IMG/VR virus record: IMGVR_UViG_3300045988_106851
Coordinates: 1 to 64,000 of that record
Length of the DNA stretch: 64,000 nucleotides
Reading direction: 5' to 3' (one strand)
Origin: a virus
Position numbers and translations under genes: made by a program. Below are positions 5,459-27,022 of the stretch, piece after piece. The notes beneath the pieces were generated by a model, which was not told the origin of the DNA, searched no databases, and saw nothing but the letters and a program-made list of their open reading frames with translations. How positions within the stretch are numbered: position 1 is the first letter of the stretch; the number at the start of each line of letters is the position of its first letter.

Positions 5459-5460
5459 AT

Positions 5461-6984
5461 TTATTCCTCCTCTTCTTCATTTGAAACTGACTGACTTCCA
5501 CTTGCGGCACTACCAAGTCCCGAAAGGGCTGCTTGCTGCGCCAACGCTTCTTCCTGTTCACTCTTCATTTCTTCCTCAACCTTATCAGGGTCATCATTGA
5601 GAGGGTTAAGCTCAATGCTACGCCGCTGCGAGGTTGAAGGATTGCCACCGTTGCTTTGAGTAATAAGTTGCATCAGCTCAACATTATTTTTAGGGATGTA
5701 AGGCTCAAACACAGGCTCGAAGTCAATATCCTCAGCAACGCTTTCGTCTATACCTTTCACATAAGCACCTGTATTGCAGATGCCATTGGCCACGATATTG
5801 CTCCTGCGTGTGAACATCTCCCCATAAAGCTCCGTTTTATTGCCAACTTTCAAAAATGGGTCTGTGAACATTAAGCGAATGGCCGCGCCACTGGTGTTAT
5901 TGCCCAATGTCTTCATATTCTCAAATGAAATATCAGGCGTTTGTGTGAAGGAGAAGATAATATTAAACAGATAAGCAATCTCGCCCTTCACCGACTCTGG
6001 CGAGTGGTCCCAAGACAGGACGCTCATGTGCGTTTCCTTGCCGCCTTGGAATACCGCGCCCTGCTCGCCTTTCTCGGCGAAGCCTTCCAAACGCCCTTGT
6101 ATGAAGTATTTAGGCGTGCCGAAATAGTCGTTAGTATCACCCCAATTGGAGATGCACTCCTCCGCACGGTCTGCCGCCCACTGAACGTCTGCCCACTCTG
6201 ATTTGTACTGGTGATAATACACAACAGGTATCTTCGTAAAGCCGTGGGCCTTTACATCAACAAGCGTCCATCCTGAGCCATTGTTGATATACTTATACAC
6301 ATAACGGTCGGTGTATACATCAAAATGAAGTTCAGAATTGCCTTGCTCATCAAAAATATAGTATTCGCGCCCAAAGCCATCCATGCGATGCCAGTCGTTG
6401 AAGTGCGGATATAGCTTGTCGCCATTGGCAGGAGAAAGCAACTGCACACGTATCTCGCCGCCAAGTCGTCCGTTATCGTCCGTGGTCATGTACCACAACT
6501 CCGCTGCCTCACACTGTGAGGAAACGGTGCGAACGAGTTGCTTGTCAAAATACTTCATCTTGTTATCGTGATAGCAATGCATGATGGCATCATAAAGCAG
6601 TTGTTGCTTTCCGTCAAGCGACTTCACATCCACACCATGCGAATTAGCCTTATATGTCACGGCATTGGTAAGCAAGAAACCGACAAGCCTCTCTACGATA
6701 ATATACTGTATGGGCAGAGCTATCCTTACCCTGTCAACTAACACCGTCTTGTAGATTACCTGTCCCGTGATGGGGTCTTTTTGGTCGGTGGGGACTTTTA
6801 TTCGCTTTTTTTTACGCTTATCGATGTCAAACACGTCATGCTTGTATGGATCCCATTGGCGCATGAGCGTTTCAAAGTTGTCATGCAGTGGCAATTTGCG
6901 AGCTGTAAGCAATGTATGCACGGTGTTGGCATCATTGCCCGAGAGTATTTCAGTTATATTCCTCATTTTTTGTGGCTTTGCCAC
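5461..6984 (-). CDS. portal protein
   Basis: 507 aa with an acidic C-terminal tail (SNEEEEE). Located between the large terminase and the gp7-like minor head protein. Confidence 0.75.
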   Translation of the reverse strand: MAKPQKMRNITEILSGNDANTVHTLLTARKLPLHDNFETLMRQWDPYKHDVFDIDKRKKKRIKVPTDQKDPITGQVIYKTVLVDRVRIALPIQYIIVERLVGFLLTNAVTYKANSHGVDVKSLDGKQQLLYDAIMHCYHDNKMKYFDKQLVRTVSSQCEAAELWYMTTDDNGRLGGEIRVQLLSPANGDKLYPHFNDWHRMDGFGREYYIFDEQGNSELHFDVYTDRYVYKYINNGSGWTLVDVKAHGFTKIPVVYYHQYKSEWADVQWAADRAEECISNWGDTNDYFGTPKYFIQGRLEGFAEKGEQGAVFQGGKETHMSVLSWDHSPESVKGEIAYLFNIIFSFTQTPDISFENMKTLGNNTSGAAIRLMFTDPFLKVGNKTELYGEMFTRRSNIVANGICNTGAYVKGIDESVAEDIDFEPVFEPYIPKNNVELMQLITQSNGGNPSTSQRRSIELNPLNDDPDKVEEEMKSEQEEALAQQAALSGLGSAASGSQSVSNEEEEE

Positions 6985-14969: not shown

Positions 14970-15329
14970 ATGAAGATATTTTATGATACCTACAAAGACA
15001 TCTTTGCCTTCGCAAAAAAGGCGTTCAAAGGCACAGCCCTCGGCATATCTCGTTTACTGTGGACGGTTGTCTTACTCGTGGTCAACAGTGCGAGGTTCGC
15101 GTTCCTATGGCTTTCTGAGGTTATCAGGAAGAAGCCGATGGTGACGCTGCTCGTGTTCGCGGGGTTGCTCCTTGCGACAAACAGCGTGAACTACGCTTCC
15201 ATGAAAGCCAAGCTCACCACGGCCGAGTGGCGTTACGACCGTCTCCGCATCCACATGGATAGCGTCTACGAGGCATACAACATCCACAGCTCCTATTCCC
15301 GTATCGTCTCCTACGAGGAAGCGAAATAA
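14970..15329 (+). CDS. membrane protein, hypothetical
   Basis: Two hydrophobic helices (LLWTVVLLVVNSARFAFLW and MVTLLVFAGLLLATN). Confidence 0.5.
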   Translation: MKIFYDTYKDIFAFAKKAFKGTALGISRLLWTVVLLVVNSARFAFLWLSEVIRKKPMVTLLVFAGLLLATNSVNYASMKAKLTTAEWRYDRLRIHMDSVYEAYNIHSSYSRIVSYEEAK

Positions 15330-15353
15330 TCGACCCACAAAAACATTAACCAA

Positions 15354-15590
15354 ATGGAAATATCCGATGACATACAGTTAGGCACGCGCATCACCTTGCA
15401 GGTTTCCGAGGGCAGCTGCGATGATTGCTTCTTCGCCAAGCTTGACTACGACCTCCGCGTAGATTGCTGCTACCGCATAAAATGCCAGGCTGCGCGTCGC
15501 AGAGACAAAAAAAACGTGGCATTCAAATTGGTCGAGGGCAGTGCCACCGAGCCGAACATGCCCATTGAACATAAAAAAACACAGCAATGA
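15354..15590 (+). CDS. hypothetical Cys-rich protein
   Basis: 78 aa containing CDDCFF...DCCYRIKC. The stop overlaps the next ATG (ATGA). Confidence 0.45.
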   Translation: MEISDDIQLGTRITLQVSEGSCDDCFFAKLDYDLRVDCCYRIKCQAARRRDKKNVAFKLVEGSATEPNMPIEHKKTQQ

Positions 15591-15826
15591 ACAGTAAAAA
15601 GCACAATAATAGGGAACAGGCGATACAAGGGTTCTTGAAGGACTTATGGCATCCCGCCAATGAGCAACCGAAACATTCCAAGTGGATTATGACACAGTTT
15701 CTCGACGATGACAATGATATTGCCTTTGAGATAGACATTGCCGGGCCTCTTATAGAGTGGAGGGAATATGCCAAGAAGTACAGAATCGTAAAGTGGCTAT
15801 ATGTCGATGACATCTTGCCACAGTAA
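15587..15826 (+). CDS. hypothetical protein (FLKDLWH / WLYxDDxLP family)
   Basis: Shares AIQGFLKDLWH...KWLYVDDILPQ with the C-terminal half of the 17715-18062 product. Confidence 0.5.
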   Translation: MNSKKHNNREQAIQGFLKDLWHPANEQPKHSKWIMTQFLDDDNDIAFEIDIAGPLIEWREYAKKYRIVKWLYVDDILPQ

Positions 15827-15858
15827 GGAGATAAGAAGTTTAACGAAATATAAACAAT

Positions 15859-16083
15859 ATGGCATGGGTATGTGTAGGATATAGTGGTGAAGAACTTGTG
15901 TTCGTCAATAAGCCGCATAGAAGAATTAGCAAAAACGAGTTCTTTTTTGATGAAAATGACATATATAAACACGAATGGATAGATGATAAATATTGTGGCT
16001 GCATAAATCTTCCCAAAGGCAGCATCAAGAAGCTCATCGGAAAGGACTTGTCTTGGGACGATGAGCCTGTAGAACTTAAATAA
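15859..16083 (+). CDS. hypothetical protein
   Basis: 74-codon ORF in the operon orientation. Confidence 0.4.
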   Translation: MAWVCVGYSGEELVFVNKPHRRISKNEFFFDENDIYKHEWIDDKYCGCINLPKGSIKKLIGKDLSWDDEPVELK

Positions 16084-16091
16084 GAGTAGTT

Positions 16092-16379
16092 ATGGTTAAA
16101 CCCTACAGAATCAAACACAAAGCAAGTAGATATTATTATCAACGTTACAACGGAAGTAACCTTGGCAAGAAAGGTAAGGTGTATATGAATAATCAATCAC
16201 CACTTACAATGTGCGATAATGAGAACTTTATACGTATTCAGATCCGTCACAACACTTTAGCTTATAAAGCATTGAGAAATATGCTTTCCAAATATGCTAT
16301 AGGGAAAGATGATGAAAATGAATGGCATAGTACATCTTACAGAGTTCCGAAAAGTGAATTTGAAAAAGAAGAATTATAG
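16092..16379 (+). CDS. hypothetical protein
   Basis: 95-codon ORF in the operon orientation. Confidence 0.4.
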   Translation: MVKPYRIKHKASRYYYQRYNGSNLGKKGKVYMNNQSPLTMCDNENFIRIQIRHNTLAYKALRNMLSKYAIGKDDENEWHSTSYRVPKSEFEKEEL

Positions 16380-16382
16380 TTT

Positions 16383-16460
16383 ATGAAAATAGAAGATATT
16401 AAGTTCAAGGCTAAACGTCTTGATACTGGAGAATGTGTAGAAGATGACTTAAAAATATAA
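16383..16460 (+). CDS. 25-codon mini-ORF with a YopX-like N-terminal motif (possibly a remnant)
   Basis: MKIEDIKFKAKRLDTGECVEDDLKI. The IKF(K/R)xK..D.GE pattern is typical of YopX-family N-termini. A paralogous mini-ORF is at 18609-18695. Confidence 0.3.
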   Translation: MKIEDIKFKAKRLDTGECVEDDLKI

Positions 16461-16464
16461 TAGT

Positions 16465-16803
16465 ATGGAAAAAGAACAATTACATTCAGCCTTACTTCTT
16501 CTAATGAGTAAATTAGAAGATATTAAGAGCAATCCAATGCACGACAAAACGTTCGTTGTTGCATTAACGGAAGTACTACGATACTTTCGTGACAATGGTG
16601 AATTAAGGGAGGCTTATAAACAACATAAAGCTATAATAGCTGATATGGAAAAGCAACCTTTCTGTAAAGCTATCATGGATATGTTCTGTGCGAAGATTAC
16701 CACTGAGCATCCAGAACTTCCTCCTCTTAATATGAAAGAAACTATAGAGAAATTATCCTCAGATGAGTTTATTGACAATAAAATTAAAAATGTGTTAGGG
16801 TGA
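16465..16803 (+). CDS. hypothetical protein
   Basis: 112-codon ORF in the operon orientation. Confidence 0.45.
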   Translation: MEKEQLHSALLLLMSKLEDIKSNPMHDKTFVVALTEVLRYFRDNGELREAYKQHKAIIADMEKQPFCKAIMDMFCAKITTEHPELPPLNMKETIEKLSSDEFIDNKIKNVLG

Positions 16804-16860
16804 ACTACCCAAAAGCTAAAGACTTGCAGGTTTTACGACACTGATTATAAACAATTATAA
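16804..16860 (+). repeat. conserved intergenic cassette, copy 1 (hairpin plus T-run plus TATAAA)
   Basis: ACTACC..GCTAAAGAC(T)tgcaGGTTTTACGaCACTgAtTATAAA aligns with 18554-18608. The stem keeps pairing through a T/C change. Confidence 0.6.
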
Positions 16861-16869
16861 ATATAGCTT

Positions 16870-17718
16870 ATGAGATACATGAGAAAAACGCCAGTAGAGG
16901 CTATCCAGTGGAAGGGGGACAATCAGAAAGAAGTCTCTAATTTTATCAGTCCTACTACCGAGTCCTATTGTACTACGCTGGACGACCGTTACGGCAACCT
17001 TGATATATCCTACGCAGACCTTAAGGGGCGTAATTTTAATGCTGTCGTTCCTAAGTTCGGATGGGTTGTGAGAGATGGCAAAACCTTTCAGTTCTACAAG
17101 GATGCCACATTTAGAAAGACCTTTGGAAAAGTGCAGAAAGACGATTACAAAGGCATTGACAGGGAAGGCATGAGCAATACCCTCAAGGAGGCTCTTGACG
17201 GTTGTGATGAGCTTTTCAAAGGCTTTAAGGATGTCTTTAGAGCGGAGCCATACAAGGAGACTTTGGGCGCAGGAGTATGTATCACCCCCGACCATATAAA
17301 GATTGACAACCTTTACAAAGGCTATGAAAAGACCCACGAGGAAGTCAAGCTCTCTGATGGATTGAAAGAGATGGCAAGCAACAAAGAGAAAGAGTACTCG
17401 CATGGCAAAGCAAAAGGTATCGAATCCGACACCTTTGAGTCCGTTCTCAACGAAATGAGAAACCTTCACGCCAAGAAGAACAAGGACTACGGTGACGCGT
17501 TCCACAAGAGCTTCGAGGAGTTCGGTGTTACTGCCGGTGTTGTACGCCTTAATGATAAGATGGAGCGTGTGAAGAGTCTTGTGAAGAATGGCAAGGCGGA
17601 AGTCAAGGACGAGAGTCTGATGGACACGTTGAAGGACATGGCAAGCTATGCTGTCATGTTGTATGTGGAACTTAAAAATAAAGAACGGAGAATTTGTAGT
17701 AGCGGAGAATTATTATGA
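16870..17718 (+). CDS. protein with a C-terminal all-alpha MazG/DUF1599-like domain
   Basis: NLHAKKNKDYGDAF...GVVRLNDKMERVKSL...LKDMASYAVM fits the KxxDYG...RxxDKxxR pattern of MazG-like/DUF1599 domains (recollection-level match). Confidence 0.45.
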   Translation: MRYMRKTPVEAIQWKGDNQKEVSNFISPTTESYCTTLDDRYGNLDISYADLKGRNFNAVVPKFGWVVRDGKTFQFYKDATFRKTFGKVQKDDYKGIDREGMSNTLKEALDGCDELFKGFKDVFRAEPYKETLGAGVCITPDHIKIDNLYKGYEKTHEEVKLSDGLKEMASNKEKEYSHGKAKGIESDTFESVLNEMRNLHAKKNKDYGDAFHKSFEEFGVTAGVVRLNDKMERVKSLVKNGKAEVKDESLMDTLKDMASYAVMLYVELKNKERRICSSGELL

Positions 17719-18062
17719 TTGACGAAAAGACAATAGACGAGGGTGCAAGAGATTATATCAACAAAAACGGTTATTTTGTCAAGTATGACGAAGACCCTTG
17801 TGTTGATATAGAGTTTGCTTATAAAGAGGGTGCTATGTGGGCTATCAATGAGTTCTTGAAGGACTTGTGGCATAACAATAGTGAGAAGCCTGTAATGAGT
17901 GAGCATGGTATGATACTTGTTGAGCTTAATGATATTACCGCTTGCAAATACTCTTTGTGGCGTAGTACTACAACCTACGAAAGCCTTTGCAACAACGCAG
18001 GATATGTTCACCGTTGGCTCTATATAGATGATTTGCTTCCAAAGAAAGGAGGTGCTGAATGA
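17715..18062 (+). CDS. hypothetical protein (FLKDLWH / WLYxDDxLP family)
   Basis: AINEFLKDLWH...HRWLYIDDLLPKK is paralogous to the 15587-15826 product. Confidence 0.5.
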   Translation: MIDEKTIDEGARDYINKNGYFVKYDEDPCVDIEFAYKEGAMWAINEFLKDLWHNNSEKPVMSEHGMILVELNDITACKYSLWRSTTTYESLCNNAGYVHRWLYIDDLLPKKGGAE

Positions 18063-18265
18063 AACCAGAAGCTATCCTATCCATCATTACATACCTGACT
18101 TTAACGTACATTCTCTATAATACCTTACTTGGATATGCAGACGTTGGCAAAGAGAGCACCATTGGAATACTACTCCGCTTCCCTGCAATGATTTCAGCCC
18201 TATGGATATGCAACCAATTAGCTGACATAAATACTAAGGATGGAGGCGACGATGGACAAGATTAG
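18059..18265 (+). CDS. small membrane protein
   Basis: 68 aa with two hydrophobic helices and an ATGA overlap with the upstream gene. Confidence 0.45.
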   Translation: MKPEAILSIITYLTLTYILYNTLLGYADVGKESTIGILLRFPAMISALWICNQLADINTKDGGDDGQD

Positions 18266-18383
18266 CGAATTGTCATACCTTCACCTTATAGCACAGCTCG
18301 AAGAAGAAAACAGGCTCTTGCGAGACGAGGCAAAACACCTACGCCTCACGATAAAGGATTACTTAAACAAAAAAAACGCATGA
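18252..18383 (+). CDS. 43-aa coiled-coil mini-protein
   Basis: Not in the ORF track because it is under 60 aa. ATG at 18252 gives MDKISELSYLHLIAQLEEENRLLRDEAKHLRLTIKDYLNKKNA. The stop overlaps the next ATG. Confidence 0.35.
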   Translation: MDKISELSYLHLIAQLEEENRLLRDEAKHLRLTIKDYLNKKNA

Positions 18384-18553
18384 AAATCAGACTGGCAAAG
18401 AAAATAATGAACACGAGGACAGACCGCCTTGCCGCATATTGGTATGACAGGTTGGTTGATACCTTGGTCGCTCAAACAAGGATAGACCATCGAATCAAAA
18501 AGGCGGCAAGGCTAATAAGCAAGTACAATTACAAAAAATTCAACAAGCAGTAA
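18380..18553 (+). CDS. 57-aa protein (MKIRLAKKIM family)
   Basis: Not in the track. MKIRLAKKIMNTRTDRLAAYWYDRL...HRIKKAARL is paralogous to the 25600-25812 product (MKIRLAKKIMAQQ...HRLIKAMKML). Confidence 0.45.
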   Translation: MKIRLAKKIMNTRTDRLAAYWYDRLVDTLVAQTRIDHRIKKAARLISKYNYKKFNKQ

Positions 18554-18608
18554 ACTACCTACAGGCTAAAGACCTATGGGTTTTACGGCACTCAATATAA
18601 ATGATAAT
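18554..18608 (+). repeat. conserved intergenic cassette, copy 2
   Basis: ACTACCtacagGCTAAAGACCtatgGGTTTTACGgCACTcAaTATAAA aligns with 16804-16860. Confidence 0.6.
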
Positions 18609-18695
18609 ATGAGAACAATTAAGTTTAAGGCTAAGACATTGAAGGATGGCGAATACTTTAAGACTGAAGAAGAAAAGGAGGCCGACAATGATTAA
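18609..18695 (+). CDS. 28-codon mini-ORF with a YopX-like N-terminal motif (possibly a remnant)
   Basis: MRTIKFKAKTLKDGEYFKTEEEKEADND. The stop overlaps the ATG at 18688 of the following reading frame. Confidence 0.3.
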   Translation: MRTIKFKAKTLKDGEYFKTEEEKEADND

Positions 18696-19149
18696 AGCAG
18701 AAGACCTTAGAATAGGCGACATTGTGCAGACAAACAAAGACTGCATGTTTCCGAAAGACACATTGTGCATCGTTACCGAAATCCATCCCGACCGACAGTT
18801 TAATGACAAAAAGGGAGTCGTCAGTCTGAAGGCTGTCAACGACGAAGACGACGGTCCCTGGGGGACATGGTGCTGCAACATCGATGGCGTGCCCATCACG
18901 CCCGAAATACTTCGCAATAATGACTTTAAGGAAGAAGTCGAAGGCAAATACTTCACAAGGCCAATCAAAGTCAGAGCAGGCAGTTCCCTTGCCAGATATT
19001 TGGCTGTAGAACGAAAAAAATACGCTTGGGCAATATTCATAAAGTATTACAACGTGACAGGCTATGCACTCTTATGTCATGTAAAGTACGTTCACGAACT
19101 ACGGCTCGCCCTTAAAATAGTAAAATTTAATCCGGAAATGAAAGTATAA
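18646..19149 (+). CDS. hypothetical protein
   Basis: 167-codon ORF. An alternative ATG at 18688 (MIKAEDL) is translationally coupled to the mini-ORF at 18609-18695. Confidence 0.5.
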   Translation: MANTLRLKKKRRPTMIKAEDLRIGDIVQTNKDCMFPKDTLCIVTEIHPDRQFNDKKGVVSLKAVNDEDDGPWGTWCCNIDGVPITPEILRNNDFKEEVEGKYFTRPIKVRAGSSLARYLAVERKKYAWAIFIKYYNVTGYALLCHVKYVHELRLALKIVKFNPEMKV

Positions 19150-19177
19150 TGTGGATGAATAAGTAAGTAACAAAACA

Positions 19178-19312
19178 ATGACTGACATTAAGATTTCGGT
19201 GCATCCGTTTGGCCATAAGCTCGAATGGCGAGGATGGGGGGGTAACTTCTCGCCTGCTCTACGAGCCACCGACTACAAATGCCCTCACTGTATAATGATT
19301 GAATATGACTAA
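19178..19312 (+). CDS. C5-methyltransferase TRD-like mini-protein (module a)
   Basis: 44 aa: ...WGGNFSPALRATDYKCPHCIMIEYD. Has a TRD-like xPxLRAxDYK core and an IEYD-stop tag. The next ATG is embedded at 19305. Confidence 0.55.
   Translation: MTDIKISVHPFGHKLEWRGWGGNFSPALRATDYKCPHCIMIEYD
19236..19242 (+). repeat. coding G7 homopolymer (in frame)
   Basis: TGG GGG GGT encodes WGG in module a. Confidence 0.9.
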
Positions 19313-19439
19313 GCAACACCCATTCGATGATTTTCATCAGCGCATTCATTGGGACGGCAACTCCATCGGAACCGTTACCCAGCAATGGGGCAATCCTGCG
19401 CCGAGGCACGGATGGCGAATAATGACAGAATATGATTAA
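19305..19439 (+). CDS. TRD-like mini-protein (module b)
   Basis: 44 aa: ...NSIGTVTQQWGNPAPRHGWRIMTEYD, ending in EYD-stop. The next ATG is at 19432. Confidence 0.5.
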   Translation: MTKQHPFDDFHQRIHWDGNSIGTVTQQWGNPAPRHGWRIMTEYD

Positions 19440-19758
19440 CCCTCACACGCCCCGCTACAAGCGCGGCACCATCACCAAGGACGGCAAGCTATACGGACGC
19501 TATCCCGACGGTTCGCTCTACCGCATCTACTCCACCTCTGACCGACCCTTCCTTCAGATTGTTGACCGCAAGGGCGAGACGTTCCTTCGCATACGCCAAG
19601 CCACCGAGCAGGGCTATACCGACTGCCCTTGCCCTGGTGCTGCCGACCTCAGCTATTCCTCCTCGGCTCTAAGGCGCAGCAGGACGGTTGGGGGGGGTAA
19701 GCTGGTGAACGCTCTGACCGCAGCAAGCGGAGGGGCGTGCGTGTTTGTTGAATTATGA
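19432..19758 (+). CDS. TRD-like protein (module c)
   Basis: 108 aa: ...TVGGGKLVNALTAASGGACVFVEL, carrying the VEL-stop tag shared with modules f and o. Confidence 0.5.
   Translation: MINPHTPRYKRGTITKDGKLYGRYPDGSLYRIYSTSDRPFLQIVDRKGETFLRIRQATEQGYTDCPCPGAADLSYSSSALRRSRTVGGGKLVNALTAASGGACVFVEL
19690..19697 (+). repeat. coding G8 homopolymer (in frame)
   Basis: GTT GGG GGG GGT encodes VGGG in module c. Confidence 0.9.
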
Positions 19759-19765
19759 CTTGAAT

Positions 19766-19942
19766 ATGCTTAGAGCAAAGGCAATATCAATAATGGTGAA
19801 AAAGGTGGAGCAGACCATGGTGTTTCAGAACATGCAAGCCAAAGGTCTGATAACGCCTCGCTCGCTTGATGGCGAATGTTTTACTCTTACGTCTGCAATG
19901 GGATTAGGGGGGGCAAACGCCTGTAATAGTAAAGGTATATGA
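19766..19942 (+). CDS. TRD-like mini-protein (module d), C-terminus probably out of the conserved frame
   Basis: ...GECFTLTSAMGLGG then ANACNSKGI-stop as assembled. One fewer G gives GGQTPVIVKVYD-stop at 19944-19946, which recreates the canonical TATGACTAA junction. Confidence 0.5.
   Translation: MLRAKAISIMVKKVEQTMVFQNMQAKGLITPRSLDGECFTLTSAMGLGGANACNSKGI
19907..19913 (+). repeat. coding G7 homopolymer (breaks the conserved frame)
   Basis: See module d. G6 or G9 would restore the Y-D-stop tag. Confidence 0.8.
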
Positions 19943-20070
19943 CTAAATACGACCTCTACCAATATCCTCGTGGCTACAACGACGGAGGTAGATTAGGCAC
20001 TGACGTTTGCCCGACCTTGACAATCAATTCGTGGCAGCAAAATGTATTTCTGATTGAAGAATATGAATAA
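19939..20070 (+). CDS. TRD-like mini-protein (module e)
   Basis: 43 aa: MTKYDLYQYPRGYNDGGRLGTDVCPTLTINSWQQNVFLIEEYE, with a classic PTLT TRD core. Confidence 0.6.
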   Translation: MTKYDLYQYPRGYNDGGRLGTDVCPTLTINSWQQNVFLIEEYE

Positions 20071-20082
20071 AGCAAAGACAAT

Positions 20083-21418
20083 ATGATCACAAAACTCAAT
20101 TTCACCGACCGCACCATCAAGAGCTATGCTATCCGTAAGCTCACGCCAAAGGAGTGTTTCCGCTTGATGGGCGTTCGCGACAACGTAATCGGCACGATGC
20201 AGAGCAGCAATGCCCAAGCAGCCGAACGTTTGCCCGACTGGAAGGGCAAGGGCAAACCCGAAGACATGGCTATATCTGCCTCACAGCAGTACAAGCAAGC
20301 CGGAAACTCAATCGTGGTGGACGTGTTGGCCCACATCTACGAGCAACTTTTCTATCCCGCACCGCCCAAGCCCCGCAAGCAGGAACAGCTCACGCTCTTC
20401 GCCGACCTTGATGACTCGCTGCCCGCCATGCCACCAACAGCCGGAGAACGTGGTAAGGAAAATCTTTTCCTCACCACGTTCTCCGGCTACGACTCGCAGC
20501 TCATGGCAGCCGACGTGCTATGCGAGTGGCATCCCGACTTCCGATGGACATGCGTAGGATGGAGCGACATCGACAAATACGCCTGTCAGATGCACAACCT
20601 CGTCTTCCCTCAGTTTGCCGACTGCGCCCTTGGCGACATCACCAAGATTGACTGGCATGAGGTGAAACGCTCGCTCCATGGGCGCGAGGTTGACATCTTC
20701 ACCTATTCCTCGCCTTGCCAGGACATCAGCCAAGCCGGAAAGCAAATGGGACTGAAAGAGGGTAGCGACACACGCTCCGCCTTGCTTTGGCGTGTGGCGG
20801 ATGCCGTGGAGGTGCTTCGCCCGAAGTATCTCTTGCAGGAGAACGTGGCGGCACTGGTAAGCCAGAAGTTCATGCCCGACTTTCAGAAGTGGCTCGACAA
20901 ACTCTCGTCGCTCGGCTACGTCTCTCGCTGGGCTCGTCTCTCGCTGGGCTCGTCTCAACGCCAAGAACTACGGTGTGCCGCAGAACCGCGACCGTGTGTT
21001 CTGCATCTCCATGCGCCAGGACGTAGCCTTCGACTATCAGTTTCCCGAACCCTTCGAGCTGCGCACCCGACTGGAGGACGTGTTGGAAAATGAGGTAGCC
21101 GACCGTTATTTCCTAAAAGACGATGCCGTGAGCAAATCCCTCAAGGCTAACGACTCCGACAACGCCCTCTTCGTGCAGTTTGATTTGCCACCGACACACG
21201 AGGCAGCAATGTTCTTGAAAACGTGGCTCACGTTGTGGATGCAAGCAGCCGATGGTTGGAAAATGACATCTACAAGTCTTCAGCTCGCCCTTTATTCGGC
21301 AAAGCAGAAAATGGAGCTGTCTTATTCCGTGTTCACGGATAAGGGAGTGGCTGCGTTAGGCGATGAGTTTCAATTGTTGTTCAAGGAGAATATGGAGAGG
21401 AAGAAGGATGCGAACTGA
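20083..21418 (+). pseudogene. dcm: circularly permuted cytosine-C5 DNA methyltransferase core, frameshifted by a 16-bp tandem duplication
   Basis: Motif order: IX (RKLTPKECFRLMG), X (YKQAGNSIVV), linker, I (LFLTTFSGYDS), IV (YSSPCQDIS), VI (LLQENV). The frame then breaks at 20920-20951, and motif VIII (GVPQNRDRVFCIS) continues in another frame to 21418. Confidence 0.8.
20920..20951 (+). repeat. perfect 16-bp tandem duplication (GTCTCTCGCTGGGCTC x2)
   Basis: Read directly at 20920-20935 and 20936-20951. Deleting one copy gives the continuous sequence ...LGYVSRWARLNAKNYGVPQNRDRVFCIS. Confidence 0.95.
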
Positions 21419-21599
21419 CAACCCGCCCGACCGTGTAATCCGTATCATAGCTGATATGATTAGGGGTGGTAGGTTGCTCACCTGCCCTGCCTCAATGTTC
21501 AGCGCAGAGCGTTTCAACGGAGCCTTTCACGGCATAGCAATAACCATCATGTCGCGCACCGATTGCAGCGACGTATTCTTTGTAGCAGTAGAATTATGA
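21408..21599 (+). CDS. TRD-like mini-protein (module f)
   Basis: 63 aa: ...HGIAITIMSRTDCSDVFFVAVEL. The ATG overlaps the core stop. Carries the VEL-stop tag, with the next ATG embedded at 21596. Confidence 0.5.
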   Translation: MRTDNPPDRVIRIIADMIRGGRLLTCPASMFSAERFNGAFHGIAITIMSRTDCSDVFFVAVEL

Positions 21600-21742
21600 C
21601 ACTCCCTTTCAACACCGAATCCGACGGTACATCACATACTATTAAATCCCAATATTTCAAAATGGGAGCAGCGAATGTGCTCGACATTTCGTTTGACGGT
21701 GCCAACTTTAAAGCCACTGGCGCAATCGTGATATATGAATAA
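21596..21742 (+). CDS. TRD-like mini-protein (module g)
   Basis: 48 aa: ...GTSHTIKSQYFKMGAANVL...ATGAIVIYE. Confidence 0.55.
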   Translation: MTLPFNTESDGTSHTIKSQYFKMGAANVLDISFDGANFKATGAIVIYE

Positions 21743-21887
21743 CAACCCTCGACCCATCATCCTCGGCTCCTACAGCCCCTCGCAGAACGGCATCATCGTG
21801 TCACCACACGGCATAGCCTTGTGCATAGCCGGGGGTGGTAAGGGCCACGATGTGGACAAACCGAAAATACTGATAGAATATGATTGA
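21735..21887 (+). CDS. TRD-like mini-protein (module h)
   Basis: 50 aa: ...SPHGIALCIAGGGKGHDVDKPKILIEYD. Confidence 0.55.
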   Translation: MNNNPRPIILGSYSPSQNGIIVSPHGIALCIAGGGKGHDVDKPKILIEYD

Positions 21888-22062
21888 CCGTTCCGTCCTC
21901 GTCCACTACCGCACCGAAGAGGCGAAAGCCTACCGCCGCGAGCATGGCGACCGTGGAGGGTGCAAATACCAAGACAAACTGCATCTCCCCAGTCCGTGGC
22001 CGTGGAGTAATTCGATAACAACAGTAACAAAAGACAACCTCCTATGCGTAATATTCAGATAG
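21880..22062 (+). CDS. TRD-like mini-protein (module i)
   Basis: 60 aa: ...RTEEAKAYRREHGD...NSITTVTKDNLLCVIFR. The next ATG (22044) lies inside its 3' end. Confidence 0.5.
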   Translation: MIDRSVLVHYRTEEAKAYRREHGDRGGCKYQDKLHLPSPWPWSNSITTVTKDNLLCVIFR

Positions 22063-22218
22063 CTGCCTTCCGAGGTCGCGACCCCGACAACCCGTCCGAC
22101 CGCAAGCATCCCTCCTGCGGTCGTTTCCGTCAGCGCATGGAGATAAACGGGGGGGGGTACAACCAACACGCTTACGTCAGTAGGCAAGGATAATATGGCA
22201 TATATAGAGTATGAATAA
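22044..22218 (+). pseudogene. TRD-like module j, frameshifted at a G9 tract
   Basis: As assembled: ...QRMEINGGGYNQHAYVSRQG-stop at 22193. With G8: ...EINGGGTTNTLTSVGKDNMAYIEYE-stop at 22216-22218, with the canonical junction. Confidence 0.7.
22149..22157 (+). repeat. coding G9 homopolymer (breaks the conserved frame)
   Basis: Counted directly: gg + ggggggg. Confidence 0.9.
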
Positions 22219-22360
22219 TCAAATCCCATTCGTGCAACGCCTCTCGCGTTTCTGCCCACGTCGGGGCTACTCCACCGCCCTGTCCGCACGCTACGACGGA
22301 TGGGCAGGACTCTACGACGAGCACGGACAGCACACCATTGTATTGATAGAGTATGAATAA
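22211..22360 (+). CDS. TRD-like mini-protein (module k)
   Basis: 49 aa: ...RRGYSTALSARYDGWAGLYDEHGQHTIVLIEYE. Confidence 0.55.
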   Translation: MNNQIPFVQRLSRFCPRRGYSTALSARYDGWAGLYDEHGQHTIVLIEYE

Positions 22361-22493
22361 GTATATACTAAATTGCTCGTCAGGTATCTGTTGCGTTTTG
22401 GCCTCTCATTACGCAAGAGAAGGATGGGCGAACATAGCAAATAATACAACATCACAATGTAAAGCACCCGCAATATTGATAGAGTATGACTGA
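22353..22493 (+). CDS. TRD-like mini-protein (module l)
   Basis: 46 aa: ...SGICCVLASHYAREGWANIANNTTSQCKAPAILIEYD. Confidence 0.55.
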   Translation: MNKYILNCSSGICCVLASHYAREGWANIANNTTSQCKAPAILIEYD

Positions 22494-22665
22494 CAAGTAT
22501 TACATTGGCTGGGTACGCAGCGGCAAGGACGGCAAGGGCCTCGTAAAGAGCCGACCGTGCAAGCGGATAGCCAATGCCGTGACGACAATGGTCGGAAGAG
22601 GTATTGCCGACCCTCGCGACGGACTCGGCAACACCACACCGCATATAGTATATGAATATGAGTAA
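22486..22665 (+). CDS. TRD-like mini-protein (module m)
   Basis: 59 aa: ...RIANAVTTMVGRGIADPRDGLGNTTPHIVYEYE. Confidence 0.5.
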   Translation: MTDKYYIGWVRSGKDGKGLVKSRPCKRIANAVTTMVGRGIADPRDGLGNTTPHIVYEYE

Positions 22666-22685
22666 CCAATAAAACAAAAAAAACA

Positions 22686-23138
22686 ATGGAAAAAGAAACA
22701 AATAACCGTATGGAGGCACTTGCCTACATCATAGCCGACCTAAAGGCAGAGAACATAGAGCTGGTGCAGCGTGTGCATCAGCTTGTGGAGGATTACAACG
22801 ACGTAGCACGTCAGTTGCGTGGAATGGAGAAGCGTAAGGACGAAGACCAGTCAAGGCAGACGCTCGGCGAAATGATGCAGATGCGCGACCATTGCGACAA
22901 ACTGGAGGTTGAAAACAACAATTTGAAGACGTGCTTGATAGCAGTCAGCTCGTTTCTGCGAGACAAAAATCTGTATATGGCTAATGGCACATTATGTTCT
23001 TATGGGTCTGGCAATCCAGAAGTATGTCCTGAGTACTGCAAAAAATGTAACTCCTACCTAAGTACTTTAAAGGATGTTGGTGTGGTTTGCAGCAGAAGAC
23101 TTGCAGAAGCTTCCGTAATTTTTGCGAAGAGTAAATGA
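22686..23138 (+). CDS. coiled-coil protein with a Cys-rich C-terminus, hypothetical
   Basis: 150 aa with heptad-like N-terminal two-thirds. Inserted between TRD modules m and o. The stop overlaps the module-o ATG. Confidence 0.5.
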   Translation: MEKETNNRMEALAYIIADLKAENIELVQRVHQLVEDYNDVARQLRGMEKRKDEDQSRQTLGEMMQMRDHCDKLEVENNNLKTCLIAVSSFLRDKNLYMANGTLCSYGSGNPEVCPEYCKKCNSYLSTLKDVGVVCSRRLAEASVIFAKSK

Positions 23139-23297
23139 CACCAACAAAAACCCTCGTGGTCGGCATGATGCAGACGCCACCCTATGACCGCATGTTTGAG
23201 CAGAGCCGCCGCGTGTACTCCGCTCAGGGAATATCGCCCACGCTGCATACACAAGGGGGGGGGTGATAGAGAGATTAAGGTATTGGTGGAGCTGTAA
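23135..23297 (+). pseudogene. TRD-like module o, frameshifted at a G9 tract
   Basis: As assembled: ...RVYSAQGISPTLHTQGGG-stop (23264-23266). With G8: ...GGGDREIKVLVEL-stop at 23295-23297. Confidence 0.65.
23255..23263 (+). repeat. coding G9 homopolymer (breaks the conserved frame)
   Basis: Counted directly: gggggg + ggg. Confidence 0.9.
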
Positions 23298-23419
23298 GAA
23301 TGTCCGCTCCATATCGCCGACAACACCTATCTTTGTACATATCACTGATATGATACGAATGAGACTAACATCGTTTTCATTTGTTTCGTTTGGTGACAAA
23401 CAAAAACAACATTTCATCT

Positions 23420-23773
23420 ATGATACAACATCAGCATTGGGAAGACTCCACTCACATACTCATTACCGACGAGCAGCATCATGGCAGCATACAGGTGTTC
23501 ATCCCCAAGCGCACCGAAGACAAGCCCTTGGATGGCGAGGCTGACGCTCTCGTCTATTCGCTGTGGGTGGGCGAACGGCACCGTGGCCGTGGGGTGGCAA
23601 AACTCCTGATGGAGACAGCCGAAAGGGAACTGAAGCGCTGCGGCATAGCGACCGTCGCTATATCGTGGGATGGACGCGACTCTCCCCAATGGGTGTTGCA
23701 ATGGTATGAAAGGTTGGGCTACGAAGGAAAAGCGTTCGACTACCGCTGCTGCACGCTTCTTAAACGGTTGTAG
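23420..23773 (+). CDS. GNAT family N-acetyltransferase
   Basis: VGERHRGRGVAKLLMETAERELKRCG is the acetyl-CoA-binding (Q/R)xxGxG/A motif A. The first ATG is at 23420; the track ORF opens with TTG at 23381. Confidence 0.7.
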   Translation: MIQHQHWEDSTHILITDEQHHGSIQVFIPKRTEDKPLDGEADALVYSLWVGERHRGRGVAKLLMETAERELKRCGIATVAISWDGRDSPQWVLQWYERLGYEGKAFDYRCCTLLKRL

Positions 23774-24014
23774 CCAAACAAAAAAACTCATTCCGAAGGC
23801 CAAAGGACCGTACTCAGTGTGTCGCATGTCGCCACTCCGTCCAACGTATTTAACGGGCTCTGGTGCAGACGAGCGAGGAGAAGGAAAACCTCAAAAGCGT
23901 TCTTTGACTTGTTGGAATACCGCGAAAAAACAAGAAATTGTAAAACATTCCGCAAATTCCGCGCCGTTTATGTTTATATAACAATACAAAGTTGCCAGTG
24001 TGGTGATTTTCCCA

Positions 24015-24022
24015 TACCTTTG
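24015..24022 (+). promoter_or_regulatory. Bacteroidota-type -7 box candidate (TACCTTTG)
   Basis: TAnnTTTG, 47 nt upstream of the ATG at 24069. Confidence 0.35.
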
Positions 24023-24068
24023 CAACGCAAAATATACATAGCATAATACACTTATAGAATTTCGGCTT

Positions 24069-24596
24069 ATGAAAACAAACGCGCTCTCCGTCGCCAACTA
24101 TTTCATAGAGTTGTCTATAAAGGACAAGAAACCCATACACTTGCTTGGGCTTGTCAAACGTGTTTATATTGCACATGGATTCGCCTTGGCATTACTACAT
24201 CGTGGTTTAATAAACGAAAGGTTTGACAAGGTGGAGGCATGGAAATACGGACCGGTCATACCGTCCGTTTACCATTCATTCAAACAGTATCGAGCAAGGG
24301 AGATAACGGGGAAAACTGTTGTTATGGAATGGGACGAGAGAGAAAAATGTCCAATATTTGAAACTCCAAGCCTAACTGCCAAAGATGAGAAAAGAATAGT
24401 AGAGATGGTATGGAGAAGGTATATTTCATATTCAGATAGCGAGTTGGTAAGTTTAACCCACATGAAAGGTACTCCGTGGGACATGTGTTTCATTGAGGGG
24501 GAAAATGTAACGATTCCAGATATTCTTACAGAAGACTATTACAGAAGGCTAATTGAAAGAGTCGCGTCAAGAAAGGGTATCTCATGGGAAAATTAG
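24069..24596 (+). CDS. Panacea/DUF4065 (SocA/GepA-like) antitoxin-domain protein
   Basis: ALSVANYFIELS...HLLGLVKRVYIAHGFALA...VEAWKYGPVIPSVYHSFKQY matches the DUF4065 N-terminal pattern. Confidence 0.65.
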   Translation: MKTNALSVANYFIELSIKDKKPIHLLGLVKRVYIAHGFALALLHRGLINERFDKVEAWKYGPVIPSVYHSFKQYRAREITGKTVVMEWDEREKCPIFETPSLTAKDEKRIVEMVWRRYISYSDSELVSLTHMKGTPWDMCFIEGENVTIPDILTEDYYRRLIERVASRKGISWEN

Positions 24597-24967
24597 ATTT
24601 AATAGATGCTCTTGAGGAAAGTAATGATAAAAATATCGAATTATCTGATGAGCGCGCAATACAAGTAGAACCTATAAACGGTGATGGAAATGCCATTCTT
24701 GCTATACAACAAAAGAAAATCCAACGACTGGATGAAGAGATAAAAGACCTGAAACAGGACAGGGAACAGAGAAAAGTATTAAGCTATGCCTTATTTGGCT
24801 TTATGTGTTTCTATATGCTTGTGGCATTGTTTATTGTGTTCTGCTGTGGCTTCGGATGGATGTATCTTTCTGACAAGGTGCTAATAACGCTAATGACCAC
24901 GACATTGGCAGACGTTATAGGCATATTTGGTTTTGTTGCAAAATATCTATATCATAACAAACCATAG
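24584..24967 (+). CDS. small membrane protein, candidate toxin partner of the Panacea-domain gene
   Basis: Overlaps the upstream gene by 13 nt. Has a coiled-coil N-terminus and two C-terminal TM helices (LSYALFGFMCFYMLVALFIVFCC and LITLMTTTLADVIGIFGFV). Confidence 0.45.
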   Translation: MGKLDLIDALEESNDKNIELSDERAIQVEPINGDGNAILAIQQKKIQRLDEEIKDLKQDREQRKVLSYALFGFMCFYMLVALFIVFCCGFGWMYLSDKVLITLMTTTLADVIGIFGFVAKYLYHNKP

Positions 24968-25068
24968 TTAGGGAGCTTCGCTTCGCATTGCCCCCCTTTC
25001 TTCTTTTCAAGCGGTATTCCACTCATCGGAGTGCCGCTTTTGTCGTACAATACAAATTGAAGAACAAC

Positions 25069-25356
25069 ATGAAATACAAGAGACTATTGGAATACTACGT
25101 CAACAAAAGGCTTGAAGCCTTGACCGACGTCGATGACTACGCCCCCGAGAAGCTAACCCTATCAAACCTGCGATGGTTTCTGAGGCACGTGGACAGTGTC
25201 GACGTGGTGTTGGCCAAGCTACGCACGATGGTTGACGCTGGCAAGAAGAGAAAGGCGTACCTGTCAAGGTTCGGCGTAACCGATGACGGATTAGAATACG
25301 TCGAGGCAGAAGACAAGATCGGCAGGGAATGCCTGGGCATCCTGCAAGTGAAATAA
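25069..25356 (+). CDS. hypothetical protein
   Basis: ATG at 25069 (MKYKRLLEYY). The track ORF opens earlier with a non-ATG codon. Confidence 0.45.
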   Translation: MKYKRLLEYYVNKRLEALTDVDDYAPEKLTLSNLRWFLRHVDSVDVVLAKLRTMVDAGKKRKAYLSRFGVTDDGLEYVEAEDKIGRECLGILQVK

Positions 25357-25381
25357 AAGACTTATAAAAAAATGGGAAAAC

Positions 25382-25603
25382 ATGAAAAAGTTTGAGTACA
25401 GATTAGAGTTGTACCAATTCAAGGTCAATAACGACTTAGCCTCCAACATCGAGAAGGCCTTTCGCAAGGAGGGGCTGAACGGTTGGGAGCTGGTACAATG
25501 GGAAGGAGCGCAAGGCACGATAGGGGGCTTACGTTCTTTATGTGACCTCACCGCAGACACCGTGTCTATTATCGCCACTTGGAAGAGGGAGGTGGAACAA
25601 TGA
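25382..25603 (+). CDS. DUF4177-like protein
   Basis: MKKFEYRLE...FRKEGLNGWELVQWEG resembles DUF4177 (recollection-level match). Confidence 0.45.
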   Translation: MKKFEYRLELYQFKVNNDLASNIEKAFRKEGLNGWELVQWEGAQGTIGGLRSLCDLTADTVSIIATWKREVEQ

Positions 25604-25812
25604 AAATCCGTCTCGCTAAGAAAATCATGGCGCAACAGCCTTACGGCTGCGGCGGGAAGATGGTCAACAAGCACCCCATGCGCTATTGGCACTGGCGATG
25701 GCTCGAATGGTACAACAAGCTGCATCGAACACCATACAAGCTGCGAGGGTTGGTGCTGGACCACCGTCTCATAAAGGCAATGAAAATGTTGAGAAGAAGG
25801 TCTGGAGGATAG
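25600..25812 (+). CDS. small protein (MKIRLAKKIM family)
   Basis: ATGA overlap with the upstream gene. Paralogue of the 18380-18553 product. Confidence 0.45.
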   Translation: MKIRLAKKIMAQQPYGCGGKMVNKHPMRYWHWRWLEWYNKLHRTPYKLRGLVLDHRLIKAMKMLRRRSGG

Positions 25813-25820
25813 CTACATGA

Positions 25821-25865
25821 AAGGGCATGATTGTCTTTCGATAGTCTTGCCCTTACTTTTTATTA
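25821..25865 (+). terminator. intrinsic terminator closing the early plus-strand operon
   Basis: Stem AAGGGCA (25821-25827) / TGCCCTT (25848-25854) followed by ACTTTTTATT. Overlaps the integrase stop codon. Confidence 0.5.
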
Positions 25866-27022
25866 TAAAGCACGTAATCTATCACTTTACGATTGGCCTC
25901 ATCTATTTTATTCTGGTCTTTCTTGATATATACATTTGTTATTTTATGTCCGCCTTTATGGCCTAAGCAGTCTGCTATAATATCAATACTGATACCAATT
26001 TGATAAGCTATGGTCGCAAATGAATGCCTTGCCCAATATGTCGTAATCTTAGGCAAGCCGAGCTCAGAGCTTATATTGCGCAACATCTTGTTTATATTAA
26101 TTTCAAAGTTCTTGCAATCCTTTTCGCCATCAAAGACATTTAAGAGATGCTTTTCGCCTTTGTAACGGTTGATAATTTCAAGTGCCTCTGGTTCTACCTT
26201 AATATCATAAAGCGTCCCAGTCTTTGACCGTCGATAAATTACCCTCCCATTCTCGATTGAAGATAAACCGAATAAATCAATTATGTTAATTCCCATCAAG
26301 AAAAATACAAGAAAGAATATATCACGATATTTTGTGCGTAACCGAGAAAGTTTCGCATTATATAAAGTTCTCAACTCTTCGACGGTTAACGCTCTTTTTT
26401 TCGTCTCTTCCATCCGTATGGTGTACATATCAAAGACATACTCTTTTAGTAATCCTTTTTTGCGAGCAAAGTTAAGGACGGCACGAATATTCATTAGCCG
26501 TATGGCGATGGTATTTTTGGAATTACCATTTTTTTTCAAAAAAGAGACAAAACTATTAATCCAGTCTATATCAATGTCCGAAAGCAACAGGCTATCGTAA
26601 TCACAGAATGCAGAAATTTTTGATTCTGTGTATAAATAGATATTCTTTGTCCCTTGCCTGTCTTTTGTAGAGAGCAACTCTTGGAATTGGGTCTTAAGCA
26701 AATAATCATTATCTGGCTCGCCTTCGCCAGACAAAAATTGAGCAAGCCGCCTATTTGAAAAGCTACGAAGTTTTCCTTCCTCTCTAAGTTCTTCAATTTT
26801 ATCGTTGACGTAAGTCACCTTTTTTGATAGTCTTAGATTGTCTATGCGCTGGCTTTGCCTTTTCTTTATCTTACTATTAGCCACATCCCATTCTTTCTCT
26901 TCAAGTTCAAAACCTGTAGAGAGGTAAAAAGCACCGCCATTCCGAGCGACCTTGATTTTTAATGGATATTTACCATTTTTCAAGCGATACCTCTTATCCA
27001 ATTTTACTGTAACTTTTATCAT
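25853..27022 (-). CDS. int: tyrosine-type site-specific integrase
   Basis: N-terminal arm-binding-like MIKVTVKLDKRYRLKNGKYPLKIKV. C-terminal catalytic region ARHSFATIAY...CLGHKGGHKITNVYI contains R, H-x-x-R-like and Y elements. Confidence 0.85.
   Translation of the reverse strand: MIKVTVKLDKRYRLKNGKYPLKIKVARNGGAFYLSTGFELEEKEWDVANSKIKKRQSQRIDNLRLSKKVTYVNDKIEELREEGKLRSFSNRRLAQFLSGEGEPDNDYLLKTQFQELLSTKDRQGTKNIYLYTESKISAFCDYDSLLLSDIDIDWINSFVSFLKKNGNSKNTIAIRLMNIRAVLNFARKKGLLKEYVFDMYTIRMEETKKRALTVEELRTLYNAKLSRLRTKYRDIFFLVFFLMGINIIDLFGLSSIENGRVIYRRSKTGTLYDIKVEPEALEIINRYKGEKHLLNVFDGEKDCKNFEININKMLRNISSELGLPKITTYWARHSFATIAYQIGISIDIIADCLGHKGGHKITNVYIKKDQNKIDEANRKVIDYVLYNKK

Follow-up and report, generated by a model that had tools for sequence, protein, structure and literature searches.

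The 64,000-nucleotide stretch of viral DNA analysed here (IMG/VR virus record IMGVR_UViG_3300045988_106851, positions 1 to 64,000; hereafter the window) carries at 20083..21418 (+) what is almost certainly a circularly permuted C5-cytosine methyltransferase (C5-MTase) gene, which we call the core. Its conserved motifs, its match to the Pfam family PF00145 and its relatives point to a chain in which motifs IX-X come first and are followed by a linker, motifs I-VIII and a helical tail, apparently without a target recognition domain (TRD). Around the core we found 14 short open reading frames (ORFs) of 43-108 aa on the + strand, five upstream (A-E, 19178-20070) and nine downstream (F-N, 21408-23297), which we refer to as TRD minigenes or cassettes. 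The best reading of this arrangement, in which we place fair confidence, is that a TRD-less permuted core is programmed in trans by free-standing, individually switchable TRD mini-proteins.

Motif order of the methyltransferase core

As assembled, the core contains an exact 16-bp tandem duplication at 20921..20952 (+), in which the unit TCTCTCGCTGGGCTCG occurs twice between motifs VII and VIII; because this duplication shifts the frame, the gene is reported as two ORFs (20083-21093 and 20975-21418). With one 16-bp copy deleted, the repaired core is a 439-aa ORF with its stop at 21418. The + strand translation from 20083 reads MITKLNFTDRTIKSYAIRKLTPKECFRLMG...QQYKQAGNSIVVDVL, a Pro-rich stretch, and then LFLTTFSGYDSQ, TYSSPCQDISQAGK and YLLQENV. 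The N-terminal part of this frame holds motif IX (RKLTPKECFRLMG) and motif X (YKQAGNSIVV), and motifs I (TTFSGYDS), IV (SSPCQDIS) and VI (LLQENV) all lie 3' of motif X. Motif VIII (GVPQNRDRVFCIS) is located beyond the frame break, where the repaired frame continues ...LGYVSRWARLNAKNYGVPQNRDRVFCIS... up to the stop. The C5-MTase signatures for which the chain was tested, namely an FxGxG-like motif I, PCQ with the catalytic Cys in motif IV, ENV in VI, QxRxR in VIII, RxLTxxE in IX and GNS in X, were all found, as TTFSGYDS, SSPCQDIS, LLQENV, PQNRDR, RKLTPKEC and AGNSIVV, respectively. The motif I is an FxGYxSQ variant that is common to the whole subfamily.

PF00145 matches the core at E=2.4e-51, in two stretches. 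In a phmmer search against the PDB, the closest solved relative was M.MpeI, and M.HhaI aligned in three segments: query residues 17-34 with M.HhaI 271-288 (motif IX), 65-86 with 294-315 (motif X) and 157-331 with 35-198 (motifs I-VIII). Since these segments align in rotated order, the circular permutation is real, far beyond chance. The Pfam match and the M.HhaI alignment agree with the order that an earlier note on this DNA had read from the letters, with IX-X ahead of I-VIII in one frame, and every motif quoted there was found. IX-X lie N-terminal to I-VIII on one polypeptide and the breakpoint falls in the variable region, as in enzymes of the M.BssHII type. Taken together, the alignments leave us with hardly any doubt that the core is a single-chain C5-MTase permuted in the variable region.

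Motifs X and I are joined by a Pro-rich, flexible linker at 20350..20457 (+), corresponding to about residues 90-125, with a predicted local distance difference test score (pLDDT) of 53-60. The linker had been described as roughly 50 residues long and free of stops; the absence of a stop holds, but the length is ~35-40 residues.

The same motifs could belong to two genes, with IX-X encoded at 20083-20430 and I-VIII at ~20430-21418, forming a split enzyme rather than a permuted chain. Split C5-MTases are known (M.AquI), and in some contigs the protein P0125 (329 aa) consists of I-VIII and the tail alone. We compared 81 related loci taken from ENA and IMG/VR: 71 of them have an uninterrupted core ORF of 432-467 aa with no stop between X and I, as in the window, while in the other 10 the core is broken by independent nonsense or frameshift mutations. 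The repaired core also matches, at 89-94% identity and 100% coverage, hundreds of 435-442-aa proteins, which come from contigs that reach ~105 kb and bear the label Caudoviricetes or uncultured Prevotella. A codon analysis of 15 distinct close core alleles gave frame-0 ratios of nonsynonymous to synonymous polymorphism (pN/pS) of 0.14 for IX-X, 0.35 for the linker, 0.11 for I-VIII, 0.11 for the conserved segment after motif VIII and 0.43 for the tail. In the two other frames, the linker gave 0.64 (frame 1) and 2.36; off-frame values were above 1 throughout, except in frame 1 of the linker and of the tail (0.58). Because the ORF is intact in 71 of the 81 relatives and selection acts in frame 0, including the linker, we conclude that this is one permuted gene. 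Two independent genes, the possibility that the earlier note had singled out against its own reading, thus appear extremely improbable, and the core chain holds all ten motifs, so it does not class with split enzymes of the M.AquI type.

Several observations concern the relatives of the core. Many proteins of 230-350 aa (P0178, P0179, P0261, P0264) contain I-VIII and one or two TRDs and end just before motif IX, for instance with ...TYILE* or ...ETKILV*, and P0125 contains only I-VIII and the tail. From their sequences, P0125, P0261 and P0264 look split in the M.AquI manner, and breaks at the TRD/IX boundary seem to be common in this phage MTase clade. The closest relatives with canonical motif order, P0127 and P0128, are 56-58% identical over I-VIII. 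P0006, the representative of a cluster of 781 members, carries a Phe at residue 212 where the catalytic Cys would be (SSPFQDIS), and the locus L052 reads SPCPD at motif IV.

Predicted structure of the core

We ran AlphaFold2 on P0091, a natural core-TRD fusion, with 33 core homologues, and repeated the run with 46 M-type cassette sequences added. Residues 1-440 were modelled with a pLDDT that mostly exceeded 90 across the motifs. The chain begins 16 residues ahead of motif IX, and in the model a β-hairpin (residues 2-6 and 11-15) directly precedes that motif. The linker is disordered at about residues 100-120. Beyond motif VIII, the model contains a helix (340-350), a strand (355-359) and three further helices (366-382, 390-408 and 413-441).

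The region after motif VIII, at 21100..21418 (+), is resolved by the model, the alignment and pN/pS into a conserved stretch (helix, strand 355-359, helix) and a variable helical tail, and does not appear to have a TRD fold. Within it, FLKANDSDNALFxQFDLPPTHEAAMFLKT is conserved to the level of the catalytic motifs, and the last ~60 core residues differ between subclades. It had been suspected from the letters that this region is unlike a normal TRD, and the prediction of a short strand with a three-helix bundle is in line with that view. It may be a docking segment, as was also proposed there. A β-rich small domain like that of M.HhaI could not be recognised in the core model, and the top Foldseek matches, 4dkj and 2zcj (M.MpeI and M.HhaI), cover the large domain only. 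By both the model and the sequence, the core does not retain a TRD in the same polypeptide as permuted enzymes of type H or J do (PMC5944983). It is therefore likely that the core lacks a TRD of its own, in which case it is not simply an enzyme of the M.BssHII type.

TRD minigenes on both sides of the core

The earlier note had also pointed to TRD-like mini-cistrons on either side of the core, and homology supports this for both groups, A-E upstream and F-N downstream. Cassette J aligns to residues 272-312 of P0264, 3' of motif VIII of that protein (E=9e-10); cassette N aligns to both tandem C-terminal TRDs of P0261 (5e-8 and 3e-7); and cassette I and the N-terminal domain of P0132 have SNSITTVTKDNLL in common. 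In the relative L001, the F position holds a cassette of a different though related type, which aligns to residues 8-54 of P0241, in its N-terminal TRD (E=3e-6). Among intact orthologues, pN/pS is 0.15-0.43 per cassette type, stops are kept in nearly all orthologues, and ATG starts are kept in most types. The M-type and J-type comprise 153 and 195 protein clusters, almost all of free-standing proteins of 53-61 aa annotated at most as 'hypothetical protein'. From these comparisons, the cassettes are very probably translated TRD homologues under purifying selection. With near-universal cassette stops, they do not form tandem TRDs in one chain between motifs VIII and IX, the arrangement of the SPR/phi3T enzymes. 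A blastn search of the cassette array against 50,697 deposited phage records gave no match.

Upstream of the core, minigene A (19178..19312, +; 44 aa, ...SPALRATDYKCPHCIMIEYD) contains a G7 run at 19236 and is in frame. Minigene B (19305..19439, +; 44 aa, ending MTEYD) has an 8-nt stop/start overlap with A and is followed by C (19432..19758, +; 108 aa, ...RRSRTVGGGKLVNALTAASGGACVFVEL), which is in frame with a G8 run at 19690. D lies at 19766..19946 (+), and E (19939..20070, +; 43 aa, ...CPTLTINSWQQNVFLIEEYE) has its stop 12 nt ahead of the core ATG. On the downstream side, F (21408..21599, +; 63 aa, ...GIAITIMSRTDCSDVFFVAVEL) overlaps the core stop and precedes G (21596..21742, +; 48 aa, ending AIVIYE) and H (21735..21887, +; 50 aa, PIILGSYSPSQNGIIVSPHGIALCIAGGGKGHDVDKPKILIEYD), whose H/N-type profile weakly matches M.HhaI 224-257. 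Minigene I (21880..22062, +; 60 aa, ...SNSITTVTKDNLLCVIFR) matches the TRD fused at the N-terminus of P0132, and J (22044..22218, +) is homologous to the covalent TRD of P0264. K (22211..22360, +; 49 aa, ending VLIEYE) and L (22353..22493, +; 46 aa, ending ILIEYD) lead to M (22486..22665, +; 59 aa, ending HIVYEYE), the type that P0091 carries as a fusion at the C-terminus of its core. The last one, N (23135..23297, +), is homologous to the P0261 TRDs.

Most of the 14 minigenes end in (I/V)x(I/V)EY(D/E) or VEL, and in most of them the stop is overlapped by the next ATG, as GAATATGAnTrA or GAATTATGA. Over all loci, the overlap between a cassette stop and the next ATG is 8 nt in 295 of 567 cases and 4 nt in 49. 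Two other ways of connecting the pieces were considered and rejected. One is that E is joined to the core by read-through or by a frameshift; the two share a frame in the window and are 12 nt apart, but this is so in only ~15 of 82 loci. Programmed +1 frameshifting at the junctions does not fit, as an ATG is conserved at each of them and the P-site codon cannot re-pair in +1.

Natural fusions and conserved layout

A search of 1.84 billion representatives returned permuted relatives with fused TRDs. In P0173, P0241 and P0132, the TRD is fused ahead of motif IX, giving the order TRD, IX-X, I-VIII. The junction of P0173 and P0241 reads ...VTLE, 8-9 aa, and then MIAQIN...FDIRKLTPREC, and in P0132 two TRDs of the TL type precede RIRKFTPREC. 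At the other end, P0091 is 90% identical to the window core, but its stop codon has been lost and its frame stays open into an M-type cassette (...ENMERKNMNNKQYIGW...TTPHIIIEYD). Since there are N-terminal fusions (P0132, P0173, P0241) as well as a C-terminal one (P0091), TRDs join both termini, which is what had been predicted on topological grounds, the TRD slot of a permuted enzyme being open at both ends. The relatives thus indicate that TRDs attach naturally at both ends of the permuted core.

The detached layout also occurs elsewhere. P0121 (locus L082) is a TRD-less permuted core with 64% identity and has minigenes alongside, and in the unrelated GC-rich phage that encodes P0173 (locus L083), free cassettes lie upstream of the fused one. 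These observations bear on another interpretation, in which the mini-proteins are TRD mimics directed against host C5-MTases or restriction systems, or against their DNA sites, and are linked to the core merely by sharing an operon. Like anti-defence genes, the mini-proteins are small, many and diversifying, and they have no annotated function. However, in divergent phages they are found close to the permuted core and nowhere else, and the natural covalent fusions join them to the same core at the topologically correct ends. We consider the mimic interpretation very unlikely.

The presence of cassettes is mosaic over the 81 loci, and single linkage gives at least 14 multi-member clusters; the cassette types across the relatives probably exceed 14 clusters. 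Frameshifted copies are found in A (22 of 53), C (14 of 59), F (10 of 37) and K (11 of 67). When the locus L043 is compared with positions 15083-26418 of the window, 18.6-20.9 kb and 22-23.5 kb are almost identical and the neighbouring segments are ~70-80% identical or replaced. This mosaic indicates that phages have recently exchanged blocks of cassettes by recombination.

Poly-G runs in the cassettes

The window contains five G-runs of at least 7 nt, all of which are in cassettes (19236, 19690, 19907, 22149 and 23255), and no C-run of at least 7 nt. Over all loci, there are 172 G-runs versus 20 C-runs, confined to -1500..-1 and +1000..+3000 from the core ATG. The G-runs encode a Gly-rich loop 3' of the TL motif. 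Three cassettes are out of frame here at their runs, D (G7 at 19907), J (G9 at 22149) and N (G9 at 23255), and one G less restores the consensus C-terminus of each. In D, either G6 or G9 would restore ...GLGG(G)QTPVIVKVYD*, and in N, G8 restores ...GISPTLHTQGGGDREIKVLVEL; in its G8 form, J shows 100% identity to P0391, a protein of 57 aa that is present on 20 contigs.

In the relatives, the orthologous runs measure 4-8, 5-11 and 6-9 G, and one locus has G22. Within groups of loci with identical 60-bp flanks, we compared the lengths of G-runs and A-runs. The fraction of groups that differ in length rises from 0/28 for G5 to 2/6 for G6, 3/9 for G7, 4/7 for G8 and 9/9 for G9, whereas A-runs gave 0/181 (A5), 1/58 (A6) and 0/10 (A7). 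In the nearly identical segments of L043 and the window, indels are found solely at three G-runs and at the 16-bp duplication. Length variation of this kind in G-runs bears the signature of slipped-strand hypermutation. Cassettes A, C, D, J and N thus contain a repeat tract within the ORF whose length polymorphism alters the reading frame, as in phase-variable genes. From these comparisons, the G-runs are probably hypermutable switches.

The frame break in the core

The 16-bp duplication in the core is seen only in this window: it is present in none of the 81 related loci and is absent from all IMG/VR and JGI metagenome contigs, in which the duplication allele was looked for. The window copy does not have the intact ORF expected of an active C5-MTase, and, if the assembly is right, it is probably an inactive knock-out allele. 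With the core broken by the duplication and three cassettes (D, J and N) out of frame, the system is most likely switched off in this genome, which probably gains no methylation from it.

Knocked-out cores are not restricted to the window. The ten broken copies among the relatives (L011, L035, L048, L055, L056, L070, L073, L074, L079 and L081, with the core at ~5001-6320 in each) carry TAA, TAG or TGA codons or 1-2-bp indels, and the core of L055 and L056 has a 33-bp in-frame insertion plus in-frame stop codons. Stop-codon reassignment in these relatives was considered and rejected. The stops are mixed TAA, TAG and TGA codons at single sites in otherwise normal genes, and are therefore ordinary nonsense mutations. 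The recurrent loss of the core may reflect counter-selection, for example by methyl-dependent restriction.

The frame breaks in the window, that is, the 16-bp duplication and the extra G in D, J and N, may instead be artefacts of assembly or sequencing, so that the real phage would be intact and would not switch. The duplication is unique, with no second IMG/VR or JGI metagenome contig carrying it; homopolymers are prone to error, and the differences come from consensus assemblies. On the other hand, the large genes of the window are intact and the core mutations of the ten relatives arose independently. In assemblies of several origins, G-runs are more variable the longer they are, and they vary more than A-runs of the same length. 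Whatever the errors, the concentration of G-runs on one strand within cassettes belongs to the genome itself. We give the artefact explanation a low probability.

A model of detached TRDs and its alternatives

In the reading that we favour, the locus would be a phage anti-restriction methylation module made of detached parts. Each ~50-aa TRD mini-protein would bind the core non-covalently and supply one sequence specificity, so that multispecific 5-methylcytosine protection would be obtained from one catalytic subunit. The contact would probably be formed by the conserved C-terminal strand (I/V)x(I/V)E(Y/L)(D/E), which would add onto the N-terminal hairpin of the core and strand 355-359. In the N-terminally fused relatives, a short loop connects the last strand of the TRD to the first strand of the core hairpin, which suggests that a detached TRD joins by strand addition of its IEYD or VEL end. 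Reinitiation at the stop/start overlaps (ATGAnTAA or ATGA) would link the translation of successive cassettes, and slippage of the G7-G9 runs in cassettes would turn individual specificities on or off. As judged from these sequences, it is reasonably probable that the TRDs act in trans on the core. We see an even chance that the whole constitutes a modular combinatorial C5-MTase, in which a core and a library of ~50-aa TRDs (14 here) with poly-G switches would give a phase-variable, multispecific methylome against host restriction.

Several points weigh against this model. The fused TRD of P0091 was unfolded and undocked in both AlphaFold2 runs, with a pLDDT <50. The H/N-type profile matches M.HhaI 224-257, the TRD segment that holds Gln237, Arg240 and the Thr250-Leu251 motif, only non-significantly (E about 1.8), below spurious β-repeat matches. 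Pfam and PHROG searches returned no family for the cassettes, and phmmer searches of cassettes C and J against the PDB gave nothing relevant. The core is inactivated in 10 of the 81 relatives and in the window, and the system is thus dispensable. The differences in G-runs and the duplication may also be consensus assembly errors rather than switching within a population. Lastly, an engineered large domain of class-J permuted M.MpeI or M.SssI gave no methylation together with a TRD-only fragment (Slaska-Kiss et al., PMC5944983). A working natural system would need evolved extra docking features, for which the conserved segment after motif VIII and the N-terminal hairpin are candidates.

The failure of the engineered large domain to be complemented by a free TRD and the undocked TRD of the AlphaFold2 models would also be expected if the core were an ordinary M.BssHII-like enzyme that recognises DNA through its N-terminal hairpin and the tail after motif VIII. 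The minigenes would then not act in trans and would be a TRD reservoir or relics, that is, recombination donors or the remnants of a once-fused multispecific enzyme, which also suits the frameshifts in many cassette copies and the relatives with fused forms. Against this stand the in-frame purifying selection on the cassettes with their conserved starts and stops, and the hundreds of clusters in which they are called as proteins of 53-61 aa. In addition, the core has no β-rich TRD and its chain starts and stops at the very boundaries of the TRD, it offers no slot from which a cassette could be expressed, and the cassettes all lie on one strand with no recombinase noted nearby, inverted repeats not having been searched for. 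We regard a reservoir or relic role as unlikely and retain the model of detached TRDs that act in trans.

Genomic setting

The phage is a ~100-kb, siphovirus-like gut phage of Bacteroidota. Part of a 1713-aa ORF at 51477-56618 (-) is 28-36% identical to the tape-measure proteins of Bacteroides phages. Among 50,697 deposited phage genomes, there is none that is related at the nucleotide level. Between minigenes M and N, a 150-aa ORF (22686-23138, +) is not TRD-like; it has a predicted N-terminal coiled-coil and a Cys-rich C-terminus, and it gives a weak PHROG match (phrog_2921, E=0.003). A GNAT acetyltransferase-like ORF (23381-23773, +) lies directly 3' of the array and a YopX-like ORF (18646-19149, +) directly 5' of it, both labelled from Pfam matches on the L001 genes at the corresponding positions. 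These two ORFs share the strand of the array and seem to belong to a single long block of early genes. A scan of 16.5-25.5 kb for sigma-70 promoters and terminators, which does not cover Bacteroidota promoters, gave fewer matches than shuffled sequences.

Relation to known systems and significance

The permutation itself is already known; what is unusual is that an apparently TRD-less core is combined with detached TRD genes, in an array that varies and contains poly-G runs. Bacillus phages encode multispecific C5-MTases (M.SPRI, M.phi3TI, M.rho11sI and M.H2I, studied in the Trautner laboratory), in which one core carries several TRDs of ~40-60 aa in tandem in one chain between motifs VIII and IX, and in which inactive 'pseudo' TRDs occur. 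The system described here resembles them in being phage-encoded, in combining one catalytic framework with several short TRDs and, presumably, in protecting against many restriction systems. It differs in having a permuted core that is flanked by cassettes on either side, and in encoding every TRD as a separate cistron whose stop is conserved.

In M.AquI, the enzyme is split into α and β subunits that both contain conserved catalytic motifs. M.AquI and the engineered split forms of M.HhaI, M.SssI and M.MpeI are assembled non-covalently, as we propose here, from pieces cut in the variable region. Unlike in M.AquI, the TRD alone is detached in our system. To our knowledge, every characterised C5-MTase has its TRD within the catalytic polypeptide or in one of two motif-bearing halves. 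In the literature searched, whose coverage was limited, we found descriptions neither of free-standing TRD genes of the C5 type nor of phage C5 systems with poly-G switches.

The phase-variable MTases known so far are bacterial N6-adenine systems (Type III mod and Type I hsdS/hsdM), in which the whole enzyme or HsdS is switched. As in these phasevarions, homopolymeric runs within coding sequences differ in length between otherwise identical genomes and set the frame; unlike in phasevarions, the putative switches here each sit in a single TRD minigene, and the system is a C5 system encoded by a phage. Type I HsdS itself belongs to N6-adenine methylation, has a coiled-coil and is unrelated to the C5 system in fold and chemistry, and no homology to HsdS was found. 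The likeness is in the concept, which we propose here, of a separate specificity polypeptide for a catalytic MTase with a varying repertoire.

Permuted C5-MTases are represented in REBASE by 27 natural enzymes, all permuted in the variable region and mostly of type H (TRD-IX-X-I-VIII) (PMC5944983). M.BssHII, M.Alw26I, M2.Eco31I, M.Esp3I and M2.BsaI are like the window core in that IX-X precede I-VIII with the breakpoint between VIII and IX, but these enzymes keep the TRD in the chain, whereas the window core is without a recognisable TRD and the TRD homologues are separate genes.

If the model is true, the system would show how a ~50-residue module docks on and programs a C5-MTase, and it would provide a ready-made toolkit for MTases with swappable specificity. 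The poly-G specificity switches would extend the phasevarion idea from bacterial adenine MTases to phage cytosine methylation. The module would also explain how abundant gut phages of Bacteroidota and Prevotella cope with diverse host restriction systems.

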